The notes below the pieces were generated by a model. It was given only the letters and a program-made list of their open reading frames with translations, had not been told where the DNA came from and searched no databases. Positions 20,673 to 55,775 of a stretch of 64,000 nucleotides of DNA are shown piece by piece. Each line of letters starts with the position of its first letter. Within the stretch, counting starts at the first letter, position 1. Source of the DNA: Bacteroidaceae bacterium. Lineage in GTDB: Bacteria; Bacteroidota; Bacteroidia; Bacteroidales; Bacteroidaceae. The translations under genes and the position numbers were made by a program. The DNA is taken from assembly GCA_017555875.1 (NCBI GenBank), contig JAFZFN010000029.1, positions 15,100-79,099 of the forward strand, written 5' to 3'.

Positions 20673-20760
20673 AATTAGGAGTTAGGAATTAGAAATTAGG
20701 AGTTGAAACTCCACGAAGCCCACCGGGGCAATAAAATTCCTAATTCCTAATTCCTAACTT
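20673..20760. repeat. Inverted repeat with 7-bp tandem heptads (TTAGGAA/AATTCCT x3) in the era-der spacer
   Basis: The arms aattaggagttaggaattagaaattaggagtt and aattcctaattcctaattcctaactt enclose a short ggagttgaaactcc hairpin. Confidence 0.6.
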
Positions 20761-23639: not shown

Positions 23640-23800
23640 AACATATCAAGTTACTCTTCCTATGACAGCGATTGCGCGAAAGCGGGTGCAAAGATAGCGC
23701 AAGCCGAGCGAAAAAACAAATTTATTTGATTTTTTCCGAGGCGAAGCCTATCTTCAGACTGCGCAGCAGGCTAAAGTTAGTGCAAATCGACGCAAAATGC
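23640..23800 (-). promoter_or_regulatory. Ribosomal-protein promoter cassette upstream of rplS, with -33 TTTG and -7 TATCTTTG on the minus strand. It is a near-duplicate of the rpsU upstream region.
   Basis: The reverse complement reads cctcggaaaaaatcaaataaatttgttttttcgctcggcttgcgctatctttgca, matching 55015-55075 at about 90 percent identity. Confidence 0.65.
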
Positions 23801-26337: not shown

Positions 26338-26385
26338 CTTATTGTCTGAGGACCCAGAGAATTCACAATTCACAATTCAAAATTC

Positions 26386-28023
26386 ATGTATACCTTCTTC
26401 CTATATATCATAAAGGTATCGCTCACGCTTGCTGCCTTTTACCTTTTCTACAAGCTTCTGTGTAGCCGCGACACGTTGCATCGGTCCAATCGCGTACTGT
26501 TGCTCTCTCTACTCATCCTGTCAGCGGTGACGCCTTTCATCTATGTCGATCTCGGGATGGATAACCAAGAGGCTAACGCAGCATTTGAGGAGCTGACTAT
26601 GCCCATCGATCCTGCCGAAGGCGTGACGGGCGAAGCAGTCACGAGAGGGCGTGTAGTCCCCGTTCTGTGGCAACAAATTCCGTGGCGCTCCGTGCTCGTA
26701 GGGGCCTACCTCATCGGTCTTGTGGTGTGCCTTGTGCGCTTTGCCTCCTCGCTCCTCTCCATCGTGCGACTCATCAGGGGGAGCCAGCGTCAAGTGTTGC
26801 CCGACGGCATCATCCTCGTCACCCACACCAAGGACTATAGTCCCTTCTCGTGGATGCGCTACATCATCGTATCAGAGCGTGACCTCTGCGACAATCGGGA
26901 TATGATCCTTGCTCACGAACGGGCACATATCCGCCTCGGCCATTCGTGGGACCTGCTCTTTGCCCAACTCTGTGCCACCATGCAGTGGTTCAACCCCGCC
27001 GCATGGCTACTGAAGCGCGAGCTCGAGGCCATCCACGAATACGAGGCCGACAGCGCCACGCTACGCCAAGGCTTCGACGCACGGCAATACCAGCTGCGCC
27101 TCTTCGAGGCTGCCTCTGGCATCAAATACAGCTCATTCACCAATAACTTTACTAATTGTTCCACTAAAAAACGTATTATTATGATGATGAAAAAACAAAC
27201 CAGCCCGTGGGCATTGCTCAAGGCTCTGTATGTGCTCCCCGTAGCATTCGCTGCCGTAGCGGTTATCTCTTGCACCTCGCCGAAGGAGAAGAAAGACAGC
27301 GGTCACCTTTCAAATGTTATGGTACATGGCGAAAATCCGCTTCTCGTATTTACCTTTGAAGACAGTACAGAACTTAACATTCAAGGCAAACAACTCAACT
27401 ACGACGGCATGCCCGACTTTGATTATCTCAAACCATGCGGACTAACGCCCGAGAATATCAATAGCATTGACGCTCTGCAAAGTGAAGAGGCCAAAGCCCT
27501 ATATGGGGAGAGAGGTTCCAACGGAGCCATCCTGTTCGGAGTCAAGGGGAAGACAGCCAAAGATGTATTCTCCTCCCTCTCCGATTATGCCGCAGAGACT
27601 GGCAGCGAAGAGCCACTTAAGGTGAACCTCAAGAAAACCTCCAAAGGAGGAGTAGAAGGAGGCACACCGTTCACCTATGAAACTACAACCATCAAGCAGG
27701 AAGAGGATGAGGTCTTCCAAGTCGTAGAAGAACAACCTATGTATCCTGGCGGAATGCAAGAGCTGATGAAGTATCTGCAAAAGGAGATGAAGTACCCCAA
27801 GGAGGCACAGGACAAAGGCATCCAAGGCCGCGTCATCGTTCAGTTCGTCGTGAACAAGGACGGCAGCATCTGCGAAGCCAATGTCGTGAAAAGTGTAGAC
27901 CCGCTGCTCGATGCCGAAGCCTTACGTGTTATCAACGCCATGCCCCACTGGACACCCGGCAAGCAGAGAGGACAGGCGGTCAACGTGCGCTTCACTCTCC
28001 CCCTCACGTTCCGGTTGCAATAA
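26386..28023 (+). CDS. BlaR1-like M56 peptidase fused to a TonB C-terminal domain
   Basis: M56 N-terminal TM region with the HELAHIRLGH zinc motif. The C-terminal 90 aa form a TonB_C domain nearly identical in pattern to those of the 23914 ORF. Confidence 0.8.
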   Translation: MYTFFLYIIKVSLTLAAFYLFYKLLCSRDTLHRSNRVLLLSLLILSAVTPFIYVDLGMDNQEANAAFEELTMPIDPAEGVTGEAVTRGRVVPVLWQQIPWRSVLVGAYLIGLVVCLVRFASSLLSIVRLIRGSQRQVLPDGIILVTHTKDYSPFSWMRYIIVSERDLCDNRDMILAHERAHIRLGHSWDLLFAQLCATMQWFNPAAWLLKRELEAIHEYEADSATLRQGFDARQYQLRLFEAASGIKYSSFTNNFTNCSTKKRIIMMMKKQTSPWALLKALYVLPVAFAAVAVISCTSPKEKKDSGHLSNVMVHGENPLLVFTFEDSTELNIQGKQLNYDGMPDFDYLKPCGLTPENINSIDALQSEEAKALYGERGSNGAILFGVKGKTAKDVFSSLSDYAAETGSEEPLKVNLKKTSKGGVEGGTPFTYETTTIKQEEDEVFQVVEEQPMYPGGMQELMKYLQKEMKYPKEAQDKGIQGRVIVQFVVNKDGSICEANVVKSVDPLLDAEALRVINAMPHWTPGKQRGQAVNVRFTLPLTFRLQ

Positions 28024-28414
28024 AGAGTCGTTCCACTAACCAAGCGGCACCGCATTGTCTTCATGGTGCGGTGGCAATGGTCGGGCACATCCTTCGAGGG
28101 TGTGCCCGCGTGCTGTTCGAAAGGGCACTCGGCGGGAGAACGCCGAGGCCATACGGACAAAAGTCAGGGAGTGGCGCTGCCAAAGGGTATTCAAGTATCC
28201 CCGATGTGTACCTTTTGTATACGATATGTGTACAAATATGTGTACAAATTCATGACGTAACTATCATGACGTACAGTGGATTACGCGGGCAAAAGTGTAC
28301 ATTTCCTTTTTCCGCCTTTTCCTTTCGGCTTTCGAGGGCATTACGGACATGAAAGAGTGCGATTGTATATTTCGGAGCTATTCATATCCTTTGTTTTACA
28401 AAGCATGGAGTTTT

Positions 28415-28520
28415 TCTGGTCGCGAATAGAATGTCTTCTGACCGCGAATAGAAAACATTCTGCTCGCGAGTAGAAATATTTCTGACCGCGGGTAGAAAAA
28501 CTTTTGAATCTATAGAAAAA
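28415..28520. repeat. Iteron-like array: four exact-phase 22-bp direct repeats (TCTGnYCGCGrrTAGAA) plus a degenerate fifth
   Basis: Copies start at 28415, 28437, 28459 and 28481. A partial copy starts at 28503. Confidence 0.8.
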
Positions 28521-28953: not shown

Positions 28954-29439
28954 GTGACGCACGAAGAATTCAAAAGGCGGTTTATGCCGTTGCAGAGCAT
29001 GCTGTATCGCGAAGCATATAAGGTGCTGGGCGATGCGTTCGAGGCTGAGGATGCCGTGCAAAACATGTATGTGCGTCTGTGGGAGCAGAAGGAGGAGCTA
29101 GGACACATCGTGTCGCCCGAGGCCTATTGCCGCACGATGCTCAAGCGCATCTGCATCGACCGTTGGCGGAGGATGAGGGCGCGGGCCGAGGATGTGGAGC
29201 TCATAGAAGAGATTGTCGATGCCAATGCTCCACCCGACGCAGAGCGTGAGGAGACGGCGGAGTTTCTCGAACATTTCCTCGCCAACCTCCCCGACCGACA
29301 ACAACGGGTGATGCGGATGACGATGCAGGGAAACACGGCGGAGGAGATTGCCGAGGCCACACGATTGAGTGTGGGGAATGTGAGGACCATCGTGTCACGC
29401 ATGAGGCAGAGATTTAAGGAATTGTATTATAAACGATAA
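28954..29439 (+). CDS. ECF-type RNA polymerase sigma factor
   Basis: Sigma-70 region 2 (YREAYKVLGDAFEAEDAVQNMYVRLW) and region 4 (RQQRVMRMTMQGNTAEEIAEATRLSVGNVR). Confidence 0.85.
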   Translation: MTHEEFKRRFMPLQSMLYREAYKVLGDAFEAEDAVQNMYVRLWEQKEELGHIVSPEAYCRTMLKRICIDRWRRMRARAEDVELIEEIVDANAPPDAEREETAEFLEHFLANLPDRQQRVMRMTMQGNTAEEIAEATRLSVGNVRTIVSRMRQRFKELYYKR

Positions 29440-29451
29440 GGAGTTTGAACT

Positions 29452-30042
29452 ATGGAAAAGGAAATTCTGAAGGAATGGATGGAGCGCTTCTTCCTCGCCG
29501 AACTGACGGTGGATGAGGAGCGTGAGCTGTGCCAGTTTCTTTGCGCGAATGAGGTTCCTGCCGAACTCCGTAAGGACAAGGAGGTTATCATCGCCCTGTG
29601 TGGTACGCCCGAAGAGGATATTGCGCTCCCCGAAGGTGCTGCCGAACGGCTGGAGGCTATGCTCGATGGGCTGGAGGAAATGAAGACCCACCTAAATCCT
29701 TCCTGCAAGGGAGGACTTGAGGCTCCGCCACGCAGACGCACCCTCCCTCACAGGGAGGGATGGGGTGGGTCTTTCCTTCTCCGTGCCGCATGTGTAGCTG
29801 GTGTGGTCGTAGCGCTCTTCGTGGCGCTCCCTGATAGGGTGGCCGAGCCTTTGCTCTCTGAGACATACGAGGAAGAGGACACCTTTGACAATCCCGAGGA
29901 GGCGATGCAGTGCCTCATGGCGGCCTATGGCGATATCCGATATGCGATGAACACAACGCAGCACCACACACAGGAGGCGTGTCAAACGCTGGAGCAGTCG
30001 CAATCAATAATCCGAGAAATGTTTAATATGAATATAAATTGA
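29452..30042 (+). CDS. Putative anti-sigma factor carrying an in-frame 87-bp palindromic-element insertion
   Basis: It starts 13 bp after the sigma-factor stop. It has one hydrophobic segment. Residues 79-107 are encoded by the repeat element. Confidence 0.5.
   Translation: MEKEILKEWMERFFLAELTVDEERELCQFLCANEVPAELRKDKEVIIALCGTPEEDIALPEGAAERLEAMLDGLEEMKTHLNPSCKGGLEAPPRRRTLPHREGWGGSFLLRAACVAGVVVALFVALPDRVAEPLLSETYEEEDTFDNPEEAMQCLMAAYGDIRYAMNTTQHHTQEACQTLEQSQSIIREMFNMNIN
29686..29772. mobile_element. 87-bp nested palindromic (MITE/RPE-like) element, copy A, in-frame inside the putative anti-sigma CDS
   Basis: Terminal arms acccacc/ggtgggt and inner arms cctgcaagggagg/cctccctcacaggg. About 85 percent identical to 37741-37827. 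Confidence 0.8.
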
Positions 30043-32119: not shown

Positions 32120-32281
32120 CTTGAGGTTAAACCACAGATTACACGGATTACACAGATAAGTCCAAGAATCTATTAATAGAAAGACGAATTGTAGATGCGA
32201 TATTTTCTCGTAAAAGAATCTGAGAAATCGGTGCAATCTGTGGTTTAGAGAAAGAATGAATAACGTTAAACATAAAGAACT

Positions 32282-36862: not shown

Positions 36863-37177
36863 ATGTATAGCATTACAACCAACAAGAGCGGTACACGCAG
36901 CATCGCCGTCAGCGACGAGCACTTGTGCACCATAGAGAAGTATCAACTGTTTACAGGCCTCGTAGGCAGCAACGGCATCGTAGATGAGGAAGTTCTCAAC
37001 AAACTGAAGCTCACCGTGCGCTCGCTCATCGCCTCACAAGAGGAGTGCAAAGACCTGCTGAGTCTTTGTGTCGACGTGCTCTACCACGACAACATGAAGG
37101 CCATTGGCCTCAGTGCGCTCATGGCACTCTACAATGAGTGGCTCGCAGTACGCGAACAAACACAAAGCGAAGAATAA
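36863..37177 (+). CDS. Small hypothetical protein translationally coupled (TAATG) to ygiQ
   Basis: 104-aa ORF whose stop overlaps the ygiQ start codon. Confidence 0.35.
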   Translation: MYSITTNKSGTRSIAVSDEHLCTIEKYQLFTGLVGSNGIVDEEVLNKLKLTVRSLIASQEECKDLLSLCVDVLYHDNMKAIGLSALMALYNEWLAVREQTQSEE

Positions 37178-39060
37178 TGCCCCAACTGACGGATTTTCTC
37201 CCTACGACGCGCAAGGAGATGGAGATGCGCGGATGGGACGAGGTGGATGTGGTGCTCTTCTCGGGCGATGCCTACGTGGACCATCCCTCGTTTGGTGCTG
37301 CCGTAATAGGTCGCATACTCGAGGCCGAAGGACTGCGCGTGGCCATCGTGCCCCAACCCAACTGGCGTGACGACCTGCGCGACTTCCGTAAGATGGGGCG
37401 TCCACGCCTCTTCTTTGGCGTCACGGCAGGATGCATGGACTCAATGGTGAACAAGTATACGGCCAACAAACGCCTGCGCAGCGAAGATGCCTACACACCC
37501 GACGGACGACACGATCTACGACCCGAATATCCGTCAATCGTATATACACAAATACTCAAACGCCTCTACCCCGATGTGCCCGTAGTGCTGGGCGGCATAG
37601 AGGCATCAATGCGTCGTCTCACCCACTATGACTACTGGCAAGACTGCGTGCGCCGCAGCATCCTCTGCGATAGTGGCGCCGACATCCTCGTCTATGGCAT
37701 GGGCGAGAAACCAATAGTGGAGATTGCTAGGCGATTGCAGACCCACCTAAATTCTCCCTGTGAGGGAGGACTTGAAGCTCCGCGATGTCAGCACCCCCTC
37801 CCTCACAGGGAGGGATGGGGTGGGTCTTCCATTCCTCAAACCGCCATCCTCTACCCCAACAAGGAGTCCATACCAGGCGGAATAACTACAGAGGATATCG
37901 TGCTCAACAGCCATGAGCAATGCCTACGCGACAAACGTGCCGAGGCGGCCAACTTCCGCCATATCGAGGAAGAATCAAACAAACTGCACGCCTCGCGCCT
38001 CATACAAGAGGTTGAGGGAAAGTGCGTGGTGGTCAATGCTCCCTATCCCCCCATGACGACGGAGGAGTTGGATCACTCGTTCGACTTGCCCTACACCCGA
38101 CTGCCTCACCCGAGATACAAAGGTAAGCGCATCCCCGCCTACGATATGATCAAGCACTCGGTAAATATCCATCGCGGATGTTTTGGTGGTTGTGCCTTCT
38201 GCACCATATCGGCCCATCAAGGCAAGTTCATCGTGAGCCGCAGCAAGGAGAGCATACTCAAAGAGGTAAAAGCCGTGGCTCAGCTGCCCGACTTCAAGGG
38301 CTACCTAAGTGACCTCGGAGGTCCCTCGGCCAACATGTATGGCATGGGCGGCAAGGATAAAACGCTTTGCGCCCGTTGTAAGCGCCCCTCATGCATACAC
38401 CCTAAGGTGTGTCCTAACCTCAACACAAACCATCGACCATTGCTCGACATATACCATGCCGTAGATGCACTGCCCGAGATAAAGAAGAGCTTTATAGGCA
38501 GCGGTGTGCGTTACGACTTGCTGCTACATCGTAGCGACGATGAGGCCGTGAATCGCGCGGCCAAGGAATATACGCAGGAACTTATCACACACCATGTGAG
38601 CGGTCGCCTCAAAGTAGCGCCCGAGCACACTTCCGATGCAGTGTTGCACATCATGCGCAAGCCTTCGTTTGAGCAGTTCGAGCAGTTTAAGCGTATCTTT
38701 GATCGCATCAATCGTGAAGAGAACCTCCGTCAGCAGATCATTCCCTATTTTATCAGCAGCCATCCAGGCTGTACAGCTGAGGATATGGCCGAACTGGCTG
38801 TGCTCACCAAGCGTATGGATTTCCATCTTGAGCAGGTGCAGGACTTCACGCCCACGCCCATGACCGTGAGCACTGAGGCTTGGCATACGGGCTTTCATCC
38901 CTACACGTTGCAGCCCATCTTCTCGGCCAAGTCGCAGCGTGACAAACTCGCCCAACGCCAGTTCTTCTTCTGGTACAAACCCGAGATGCGACGCACCATC
39001 ATGGAGGAGCTACGCCGCATGGGACGCCGCGACCTCATAGACAAACTATTTGGTAGATGA
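37177..39060 (+). CDS. ygiQ: YgiQ-family (UPF0313) radical SAM protein with an in-frame palindromic-element insertion
   Basis: N-terminal domain and radical SAM CxxxCxxC (CFGGCAFC). The element is inserted in the linker before the radical SAM core. Confidence 0.85.
   Translation: MPQLTDFLPTTRKEMEMRGWDEVDVVLFSGDAYVDHPSFGAAVIGRILEAEGLRVAIVPQPNWRDDLRDFRKMGRPRLFFGVTAGCMDSMVNKYTANKRLRSEDAYTPDGRHDLRPEYPSIVYTQILKRLYPDVPVVLGGIEASMRRLTHYDYWQDCVRRSILCDSGADILVYGMGEKPIVEIARRLQTHLNSPCEGGLEAPRCQHPLPHREGWGGSSIPQTAILYPNKESIPGGITTEDIVLNSHEQCLRDKRAEAANFRHIEEESNKLHASRLIQEVEGKCVVVNAPYPPMTTEELDHSFDLPYTRLPHPRYKGKRIPAYDMIKHSVNIHRGCFGGCAFCTISAHQGKFIVSRSKESILKEVKAVAQLPDFKGYLSDLGGPSANMYGMGGKDKTLCARCKRPSCIHPKVCPNLNTNHRPLLDIYHAVDALPEIKKSFIGSGVRYDLLLHRSDDEAVNRAAKEYTQELITHHVSGRLKVAPEHTSDAVLHIMRKPSFEQFEQFKRIFDRINREENLRQQIIPYFISSHPGCTAEDMAELAVLTKRMDFHLEQVQDFTPTPMTVSTEAWHTGFHPYTLQPIFSAKSQRDKLAQRQFFFWYKPEMRRTIMEELRRMGRRDLIDKLFGR
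37741..37827. mobile_element. 87-bp nested palindromic element, copy B (the more intact copy), in-frame inside ygiQ
   Basis: Terminal arms acccacc/ggtgggt and perfect inner arms ccctgtgagggagg/cctccctcacaggg. Confidence 0.85.
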
Positions 39061-39079: not shown

Positions 39080-39170
39080 CCTGTACTAGAAAATCCAAGA
39101 ATCCCTAGATAGTCTAGGTTTTCTAGATAGTCCTAGGTTTTCCTAGCTAGCCCTAGGCAATCCTATCCCT
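39080..39170. repeat. CTAG/CCTAGG-rich tandem repeats (ctagatagtc-ctaggtttt x2 and variants)
   Basis: Tandem units of about 20 bp, related to the array at 46352-46437. Confidence 0.6.
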
Positions 39171-54469: not shown

Positions 54470-54513
54470 TTCTGAATTTTGAATTCTGAATTCTAAAGCA
54501 CAGCAAAAATATT

Positions 54514-54949: not shown

Positions 54950-55090
54950 ATGAAAATTTGTTTTTTTCGCTCAACTTGCACTAATTTTAATCTGCTTCGC
55001 AGCTTGAAGATAGGCGGCACCTCGGAAAAAATCAAATAAATTTGTTTTTTCGCTCGGTTTGCACTATCTTTGCAGCCGCTAAAAGTGTAA
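54950..55090 (+). promoter_or_regulatory. Ribosomal-protein promoter cassette upstream of rpsU: -33 TTTG at 55041, -7 TATCTTTG at 55065, plus a degenerate upstream copy
   Basis: Bacteroidota consensus TTTG-N19-21-TAnnTTTG. The region is about 90 percent identical to the reverse complement of 23650-23790. Confidence 0.65.
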
Positions 55091-55448: not shown

Positions 55449-55521
55449 CGGAAAGTAGCGCAGTTGGTAGCGCACTACGTTCGGGACGTAGGGGTCGGGC
55501 GTTCGAGTCGCCTCTTTCCGA
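55449..55521 (+). tRNA. tRNA-Pro (anticodon CGG)
   Basis: Manual cloverleaf: C1:G72 acceptor CGGAAAG/CTTTCCG, D-arm GCGC-AGTTGGTA-GCGC, anticodon loop TTCGGGA, T-loop TTCGAGT. Confidence 0.8.
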
Positions 55522-55724: not shown

Positions 55725-55775
55725 AAAAAGCAAATAAATTTGGCATTTCGCTCGGCTTGCACTACTTTTGTAGCT
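55725..55775 (+). promoter_or_regulatory. Third copy of the promoter cassette (aaataaatttgg-catttcgctcggcttgcac-TACTTTTG), upstream of mraY
   Basis: -33 TTTG at 55739 and -7 TACTTTTG at 55763, the same 20-bp spacer as at rpsU. Confidence 0.55.

Follow-up and report, generated by a model that had tools for sequence, protein, structure and literature searches.

Within the ygiQ gene of an uncultured, Prevotella-like bacterium of the order Bacteroidales (labelled 'Bacteroidaceae bacterium') lies an 87-nt palindromic element (copy B) that is probably a nonautonomous repeat of the repetitive extragenic palindromic (REP) or REPIN type, REPINs being REP doublets, and that would be transcribed and translated through in its host gene, adding 29 tolerated residues to the YgiQ protein. 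The element was found in a 64,000-nt stretch of contig JAFZFN010000029.1 (the window, to which all coordinates refer unless a locus is named), which also carries a second copy of the same family (copy A). The original prediction had described copy B as a tolerated in-frame insertion that belongs to a repeat family; that outline stands, but the place it assigned to the insert within the protein does not, and its account of the architecture and of the reading frame was incomplete.

The palindrome of copy B is real and far beyond chance. Its sequence, GACCCACCTAAATTCTCCCTGTGAGGGAGG-ACTTGAAGCTCCGCGATGTCAGCACC-CCCTCCCTCACAGGGAGGGATGGGGTGGGTC, is near-perfectly palindromic over 87 nt. The 14-nt inner arms, CCCTGTGAGGGAGG (37756-37769) and CCTCCCTCACAGGG (37797-37810), are exact complements, as are the 7-nt outer arms ACCCACC (37741-37747) and GGTGGGT (37819-37825), confirming the perfect pairing that had been claimed for both, and the palindrome runs 1-3 nt past the ends originally drawn (RGACCC...GGGTCY, with flanks gaa and ttc). 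The inner-arm 14-mer has four matches in the window (≤2 mismatches) against 0.44 expected, a count that none of 100 shuffles reached. The predicted RNA fold of a 99-nt segment has an energy of -56.2 kcal/mol, with 10 bp paired in the outer stem, 18 bp in the inner one, 3-nt bulges and a loop of 27 nt; shuffled sequences give -35.3 ± 3.6 kcal/mol (z = -5.8; none of 200 shuffles was as stable), and the opposite strand folds equally well (-56.8 kcal/mol). Read in the YgiQ frame, positions 37741-37827 translate to THLNSPCEGGLEAPRCQHPLPHREGWGGS. Because the identical sequence is present in four independent ENA metagenome assemblies and in one metagenome-assembled genome (MAG) that represents its species in GTDB (loci L001, L002, L005, L006 and L025), copy B is not an assembly artefact.

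A near-match to the 14-mer at 1307 and three further GGTGGGTC sites (12962, 45773 and 56236) show no other feature of the element and were set aside as chance matches. Rfam models run over the whole window gave nothing at gathering thresholds; below them, a match to mraW RNA (RF01746; 37732-37838) scored 32.9 bits against a threshold of 50 and aligns only the pattern of a long GC-rich hairpin stem, and matches to microRNA precursors reflect generic long hairpins.

The repeat is dispersed well beyond this genome. We scanned GTDB, at one genome per species, with the right-unit 20-mer common to copy A, copy B and an inverted ygiQ allele, and at least 116 stretches matched, all of them from Bacteroidales MAGs of gut and rumen. 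Among the matches listed are Prevotellaceae (Bacteroidaceae in GTDB), Paludibacteraceae and Alloprevotella, often with several matches per genome; single MAGs hold at least three to six exact matches each, and such per-genome copy numbers are lower bounds from an exact-match scan. No match to the unit was found in a scan of viral contigs. That two copies in one window imply a repeat family, as first proposed, is thus borne out across Bacteroidales. The conserved module spans only ~35 nt, consisting of CCCTCCCT, a variable 3-4-nt loop (CACA, TTGT, TTTA, ATGA and others), AGGGAGGG and then ATGGGGTGGGTC; units occur singly, as in many of the matches, or as head-to-head pairs with varied left-unit variants, and 43 such doublets were found. 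Copy B, first taken for a single unitary palindrome, is on its sequence a doublet of this shorter unit that is also found alone: two ~30-nt REP-like units stand head to head around a 27-nt spacer, the layout of REPINs or bacterial interspersed mosaic elements (BIMEs).

Fifteen distinct 87-nt copies from various genes and genomes share their arms and the spacer ACTTGAGGCTCCGCGATGTCAGCACC, a number that rises to 22 with metagenome matches, and 98.8% of the alignment cells in the stems are paired overall. Judged from these copies, the 87-nt doublet with its conserved spacer is shown to be a multicopy family in its own right. There are longer forms as well. A ~130-nt doublet (L128, L129, L131, L135, L137, L138, L141, L142, L145, L147 and L109) has a longer AT-rich spacer (ACTTGCAGACATCGCTGCAAGTGGGCATTTTT...), part of which, GACATCGC, is inverted with respect to the 87-nt form. 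In a 156-nt form, ~77 nt that make up three small hairpins and add 23 residues in frame take the place of TAAATTCT in the left unit; this form occurs in ygiQ (L149:~1080-1250, P0008), in the probable anti-sigma gene that hosts copy A (L150:~270-440, P0172), and in P0159, P0173, P0180 and P0229. The extra segments of the ygiQ and anti-sigma genes are homologous and alike in orientation, which suggests that a site-specific insertion became nested in the element, that both descend from an ancestral long form, or that gene conversion acted between the two copies. Forms bounded by the terminal repeats GACCCACC/GGTGGGTC (plus 1-3 nt) range from 78 to 130 nt. Another subfamily of units reads AGGGAGGGTTAGGGAGGGTC.

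The G-rich tail of every canonical unit is a canonical G-quadruplex motif, G3 N1 G3 N2 G4 N1 G3 (GGGAGGGATGGGGTGGG, at 37804-37820 in copy B). With quadruplexes allowed in ViennaRNA, a single unit is predicted to prefer a three-layer quadruplex (-22.8) over its mini-hairpin (-18.5), and in the doublet the long hairpin wins (-56.2). Literature searches by keyword and by literal unit or peptide sequence found no published description of this family, which appears undescribed; the phenomenon, a REP inside genes or a repeat like the Rickettsia palindromic elements (RPEs), is well precedented.

The likeness among copies resides in the DNA, as the original prediction had held, and is not imposed by the encoded proteins. 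When the window is compared with L123, whose YgiQ is 95.8% identical, identity is 54% at the gene's 4-fold sites (n = 262) and 60% at its third positions, against 80% at third positions inside the element and 90% over the whole element; in the comparison with L008, flanking 4-fold sites are 57% identical and the arms of the inverted element ~96%. Moreover, the element is found in unrelated proteins, in both orientations with different peptides, and in noncoding DNA. Because this conservation exceeds that of the host's neutral sites, and because anti-sigma orthologues drift to 65% identity, the arms are held constant by some cause other than the host protein. Source copies that are themselves conserved may renew them, gene conversion may act among the copies, or a conserved protein may recognize the arms.

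Reading frame and host genes

The 22 distinct 87-nt copies occupy ~18 distinct sites, ~15 of which lie inside long open reading frames (ORFs), six in sense and nine in antisense orientation, and all of these are read in one frame relative to GACCCACC. A frame shared by copies A and B had been taken to argue for selection on the frame or for a bias in insertion, neither of which is required. The element is 3 x 29 nt long and has exactly one stop-free frame per strand, which encodes THLNSPCEGGLEAP...LPHREGWGGS when one strand is read and THPIPPCEGGG...LPHRENLGGS when the other is; being palindromic as well as 3 x 29 nt in length, it keeps this open frame in a constant register with the terminal GACCCACC whichever way round it lies. 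A copy can therefore survive in a working gene only in that frame. On this argument, the common frame is a survivorship filter that needs no frame-specific targeting, though the data are compatible with targeting. Single units are translated in all six frames, and 37 of 120 lie inside long ORFs, with most lying outside.

Hosts of the 87-nt form that Pfam confirms are a BcrAD/BadFG CoA-activase with two copies in opposite orientation, hisD-hisC, thiE-thiD, two ABC-F ATPases, MnmE, a GNAT acetyltransferase and a HAD hydrolase; single units are hosted by, among others, a TonB-dependent receptor, MutS2, a PcRGLX lyase and a GltD-like protein. At the hisD-hisC junction the element is sense in one MAG and antisense in another (L051:2805-2891 and L091:7225-7311), and the thiE-thiD junction carries it at L127:5223-5308, each time within one continuous ORF, so that the element may have fused these adjacent genes or may serve as a linker between them. 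The most frequent host or neighbour of units is a ~860-residue protein seen at eight loci (L039:1718-4384, L047:1898-4471, L078, L081, L089, L109, L121 and L122; P0122, P0126), for which no Pfam or NCBIfam match was found; when the ORFs next to units were clustered, no other neighbour recurred. P0126 resembles primase/VapE-like proteins of integrative elements, and the ~860-residue protein could be a vehicle that spreads the repeat between families. A HMMER profile of the 31-residue peptide run against 1.84 billion cluster representatives gave seven hits (anti-sigma orthologues, two primase-like proteins and two unrelated repeat proteins), a search that undercounts hosts because cluster representatives rarely carry the insert. 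P0124 and P0127, which have tandem repeats with LPHREW/PHREGY-like motifs, seem to be translated repeat arrays of other organisms and were placed outside the family.

The host of copy B has the domains Radical_SAM_N, Radical_SAM and DUF3362 by Pfam and exceeds the equivalog cutoff of TIGR03904. Its ATG start is that of the called ygiQ gene, and the exact 627-residue protein is present in a 5.8-billion protein set. A profile of the 44-residue insert region, run against that word-indexed set, gave no hits, an outcome without weight since the word filter passed over even this protein. The original prediction had located the insert in the linker that connects the N-terminal domain to the radical SAM core. 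Instead, it occupies residues ~190-218 of 627, inside Radical_SAM_N (20-341 of a 640-residue version with a GTG start), and the CFGGCAFC motif (CxxxCxxC) lies ~117 residues downstream, at 335-342. Across an alignment of 120 orthologues (88-99% identity), YgiQ is 91-99% conserved and free of indels except at residues 189-218, which are the insert (37741-37830), and this pattern supports reading the 87-nt element as an insertion relative to the other orthologues. The insert may sit in a loop of the N-terminal domain, as hinted at by an AlphaFold model of poor quality (mean predicted local distance difference test, pLDDT, of 49; shallow alignment) in which residues 192-221 form a low-confidence coil between helix 177-189 and strand 223-226.

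Depending on the lineage, the YgiQ indel site is occupied by the 87-nt element, by a related peptide (THPIPPCKGGGTDIAVSQVLPHREDLGGS), by longer inserts rich in GC, by inserts rich in AT (IENEKLKIEN...NSQFSISNFQ) or, in a few cases, by almost nothing. In the DNA of four other ygiQ alleles all inserts form hairpins, with predicted energies of -29 to -66 kcal/mol, and the ygiQ palindromes of other species (L007-L010, L123 and L149) comprise GC-rich unit doublets, the inverted element, AT-rich heptamer-repeat hairpins and near-empty alleles that resemble hairpin deletions. The L008 allele is the element inverted at the identical site and still in frame, and the L009 allele is a longer relative with identical outer ends. 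The 'empty' allele of L007 retains a GAAAAT remnant and seems to have arisen by slipped deletion of another, AT-rich hairpin and not to be an ancestral empty site; directly upstream of the site, L007 has a small native palindrome, GCAATTGC-GCG-GCAATTGC (GCAATTGCGCGGCAATTGC). Intergenic hairpins with arms of 6-8-nt tandem repeats (e.g., TTAGGAG x4 ... CTCCTAA-like x3) are found in the window at 20673-20752, 32127-32247, 39114-39165, 26362-26386 and 54473-54497, and in design they match the AT-rich inserts that other species have in ygiQ. In other MAGs (L016, L027, L068 and L088), many G-rich units are likewise bordered by short tandem repeats.

Copy A is 84% identical to copy B over 99 nt. Its host ORF has no Pfam or NCBIfam match and is called a probable anti-sigma factor from its position only, because it lies directly downstream of a gene for an extracytoplasmic function (ECF) sigma factor (28954-29439). 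Orthologues down to 65% amino acid identity retain LPHREGWGGS, and at least one (P0238) is without the element. Four tandem 22-nt repeats (TTCTGNNCGCGAATAGAAnnnn; 28414-28501), which may be an operator or promoter array, lie ~450 nt upstream of the sigma factor gene.

Elsewhere in the window, a repeated segment of ~50-117 nt (23681-23797, 54964-55080 and 55725-55774; 85% identity, one copy inverted) has a Bacteroidetes promoter-like look (TTTG ... TAnnTTTG) and lies near a tRNA gene (55449-55521). Tandem repeats of 36 nt (12 codons) on the plus strand at 1094-1245 probably encode part of a repeat-containing protein.

Table 1. Window coordinates of the two copies, their host genes and the parts of copy B
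Feature	Position	Strand	Remarks
Copy A, 87-nt family	29685..29771	+	Orientation and frame as copy B; immediately precedes the predicted membrane helix of the 196-residue ORF
Host ORF of copy A, 196 residues, probable anti-sigma factor	29452..30042	+	Assigned by position only
YgiQ-family radical SAM protein, 627 residues from ATG	37177..39060	+	TIGR03904, 791 bits (cutoff 462)
Copy B, 87-nt doublet GACCCACC...GGTGGGTC	37740..37826	+	Read as 29 in-frame YgiQ codons (37741-37827)
Left unit, 'TAAAT' variant, GACCCACC-TAAAT-TCTCCCTGTGAGGGAGG	37740..37769	-	G-rich strand on the minus strand
Spacer and hairpin loop, 27 nt, ACTTGAAGCTCCGCGATGTCAGCACCC	37770..37796	+	Conserved in 87-nt copies of other genes and genomes
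Right unit, canonical, CCTCCCT-CACA-GGGAGGG-ATGGGGTGGGTC	37797..37826	+	With the G-quadruplex-type motif GGGAGGGATGGGGTGGG
Outer stem, 5' arm	37739..37748	.	Pairs with 37818-37827; 100% of cells paired in 15 copies
Inner stem, 5' arm, 18 nt	37752..37769	.	Pairs with 37797-37814; 98.1% of cells paired

Origin and spread of the element

In the account that we consider probable, the doublet consists of two ~30-nt inverted units around the 27-nt spacer, each unit comprising the CCCTCCCT/AGGGAGGG mini-hairpin and then a G-rich tail that ends in GGGTC, and it would spread by means of an HUH/Y1 transposase that recognizes hairpins in single-stranded DNA, of the type of TnpA_REP or the REP-associated tyrosine transposases (RAYTs). 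Insertion would be random as to frame; selection would then purge the two-thirds of intragenic insertions that bring in stop codons, along with those at structurally intolerant places. The element may also invert in place through recombination or template switching between its arms, which is the economical reading of the presence of both orientations at two sites, ygiQ and hisD-hisC; a strong hot spot that received separate insertions could also account for them. The flanks of 15 copies are mutually complementary (gaa...ttc) rather than direct repeats and give no sign of a target-site duplication, and for that reason transposition of the HUH type fits better than that of the DDE type. Mobilization of the RAYT type is suggested by the analogy with REPINs together with a report on Bacteroidetes, in which TnpA_REP subclass 2.6 is described as mostly from that group, with 'atypical secondary structures' and copies elsewhere in the genome (PMC6006769). 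REPs and RPEs that lie in frame within genes are documented (PMC3733652).

Several observations weigh against this account. A regular-expression search for the HUH...Y1 motif found no ORF either in the window or across the ~1 Mb of loci that were retrieved, no transposase domain was found in the 22 kb around both copies, and among the clustered neighbouring ORFs of the loci there was neither a recurrent transposase nor an insertion sequence (IS) with these ends. RAYT genes are single-copy and typically flanked by their repeats. The unit is without the classical REP end tag GTAG/CGTC, and it matches exactly across Bacteroidales families, whereas REPs are usually species-specific. No clean empty site was recovered, and both the boundaries of the insertion and the absence of a duplication are read from the flanks alone; the per-genome copy numbers are, as said, lower bounds. 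Stem covariation among the 15 copies does not rise above shuffled controls and thus does not demonstrate selection on structure, a test that is uninformative because the copies are too similar. Finally, that YgiQ would tolerate the 29-residue insert is judged from the conservation of the host gene, the structure model being poor (pLDDT 49).

Other explanations have to be set against these points. Rather unlikely, and offered tentatively, is a more active part for the repeat, in which the unit would be a hairpin/G-quadruplex switch bound by a Bacteroidales-wide protein and the doublet an ORF-compatible cassette (3 x 29 nt, one open frame per strand), retained at or targeted to hairpin-prone sites, that flips in place, provides linkers by which neighbouring genes are fused (hisD-hisC, thiE-thiD) and diversifies protein loops such as the hot spot in ygiQ. 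Recognition by a conserved transposase or host factor would explain the near-invariant sequence across families, and the element would then actively generate indel variation in the proteins of gut Bacteroidales rather than ride along as a passive passenger. We also think it unlikely that the element is a strict MITE (miniature inverted-repeat transposable element), namely a deletion derivative of a DDE-type IS moved in trans via the terminal inverted repeats GACCCACC/GGTGGGTC. Its size of 87-130 nt, its perfect terminal inverted repeats and its lack of coding capacity would suit such an origin, as would the longer forms with AT-rich spacers and the abundance of MITEs in Bacteroidota (PMC11602168), but the half-element very often stands alone, which is the behaviour of a REP and not of a MITE, the mutually complementary flanks of 15 copies contain no direct-repeat duplication, and no locus examined has an IS with these ends. 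The prevalence of hairpins at the ygiQ site could instead reflect a selected cis-acting RNA or DNA structure of this gene, affecting mRNA stability, processing or translation pausing, in which structure is kept and sequence is free. Nearly every orthologue has a hairpin there (-29 to -66 kcal/mol) despite unrelated sequence, the site is the only indel site of YgiQ, one-sided stem changes are mostly G-U-compatible, and the arms are more conserved than synonymous sites. We nevertheless regard this explanation as improbable, since the 87-nt element resides in many unrelated genes in either orientation to transcription, several orthologues have little or no hairpin (P0015, P0111, P0097 and P0043), covariation does not exceed controls, and no Rfam family is matched (mraW, at 32.9 against 50 bits, in structure only).

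Selection at the protein level, with the 29 residues forming a functional module (Cys/His-containing or a flexible linker) that is passed on by descent or recombination, is very improbable in our estimation. The conservation of LPHREGWGGS in anti-sigma orthologues down to 65% identity speaks for it, as does the frequent position at domain junctions (hisD-hisC, thiE-thiD), yet the inverted orientation yields a different peptide (THPIPPCEGGG...LPHRENLGGS) at identical sites, single units are read in six frames, copies exist outside genes, and only seven hits were found among 1.84 billion representative proteins; furthermore, the region is predicted to be low-confidence coil, and it is the DNA, including third positions, that is conserved most strongly. 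Least credible of all is an origin on the spot, in which a hairpin-prone site gave rise to the palindrome through template switching or an inverted duplication, with no mobile element involved. The native palindrome GCAATTGCGCGGCAATTGC of L007 directly upstream of the site would be in keeping with such growth, the AT-rich hairpins of other orthologues resemble local expansions, and L007 itself looks like a slipped deletion. Copy B, however, was not generated locally, because its arms and spacer are common to dispersed copies in other genes and genomes; local growth of palindromes may explain the AT-rich alleles and the hot spot, but not copy B.

Read as a dispersed REP-like repeat, the family has several practical consequences. 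Prevotella and related Bacteroidales dominate gut and rumen, and we found no REP- or RPE-like family described there. In MAG annotations the family explains recurrent 29-residue 'insertions' and orthologues of unequal length; it draws attention to apparent gene fusions that are joined via the element (hisD-hisC, thiE-thiD), and it offers a marker for strain and species typing. It also raises the questions of whether the inserts are neutral and of which enzyme moves hairpin repeats in Bacteroidota.

Comparison with known palindromic repeats

REP doublets (REPINs or BIMEs) are mobilized by RAYT/TnpA_REP (Bertels & Rainey 2011, PMC3116915; Di Nocera et al. 2013, PMC3733652), and the element resembles them in its ~30-nt, imperfectly palindromic, multicopy unit, which is found alone or in inverted pairs, joined by a short spacer, that form a long hairpin, in a doublet that, by its conserved spacer, would replicate as a unit, and in the absence of a target-site duplication. 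Intragenic, in-frame REP dimers that encode 20-30 residues are likewise known in some species, occurring in Opitutus and other genera (PMC3733652). There are also differences. A GTAG or CGTC tetranucleotide at the unit end is a criterion for REPs (PMC3733652), whereas the units described here end in GGGTC/GACCC, with GTAG confined to the loop in certain variants (TTGTAGGG). For the most part the 87-nt form lies inside genes rather than extragenically, the unit is conserved across bacterial families, its G-rich tail is a canonical G-quadruplex motif, and no RAYT is linked to the element within the loci examined.

Palindrome-associated transposable elements (PATEs) and other elements derived from the ends of IS200-IS605 share with it hairpin-based ends, the lack of a target-site duplication and a presumed single-strand HUH transposition, but no TnpA or TnpB was found near the element, and its left and right ends show no asymmetry beyond the TAAAT/ATGG bulge. 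MITEs such as Correia/NEMIS, ERIC and the BrickBuilt elements of Porphyromonas gingivalis are similarly small, noncoding, dispersed and hairpin-forming, with terminal inverted repeats; the present element differs in its REP-like modular unit and in having no sign of a target-site duplication and no cognate IS in the loci seen. BrickBuilt has been reported to be strictly intergenic (PMC10969869), unlike the largely intragenic 87-nt family. An automated census found MITEs to be abundant in Bacteroidota (PMC11602168), and that census may contain the family anonymously.

The closest functional analogy may be drawn with the RPEs (Ogata et al. 2000, as summarised in PMC10969869 and PMC3733652), palindromic repeats that likewise lie in frame in many unrelated housekeeping genes and are translated as a tolerated extra peptide, and whose mobilizing enzyme is likewise unknown; the analogy is one of function only. 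The element belongs to another phylum (Bacteroidota, against Alphaproteobacteria), is probably unrelated in sequence and compares with ~100-150 bp for RPE-1; it is also found in both orientations, and its half-unit occurs alone in intergenic DNA. It would thus provide a second system, independent of Rickettsia, for palindromic DNA that colonizes coding sequence, and a more tractable one, given cultivable relatives and plentiful metagenomes. Because its units end without the REP tag and the 87-nt form is not extragenic, we file it as a REP-like palindromic repeat able to reside in frame within genes, rather than as a proven REPIN.

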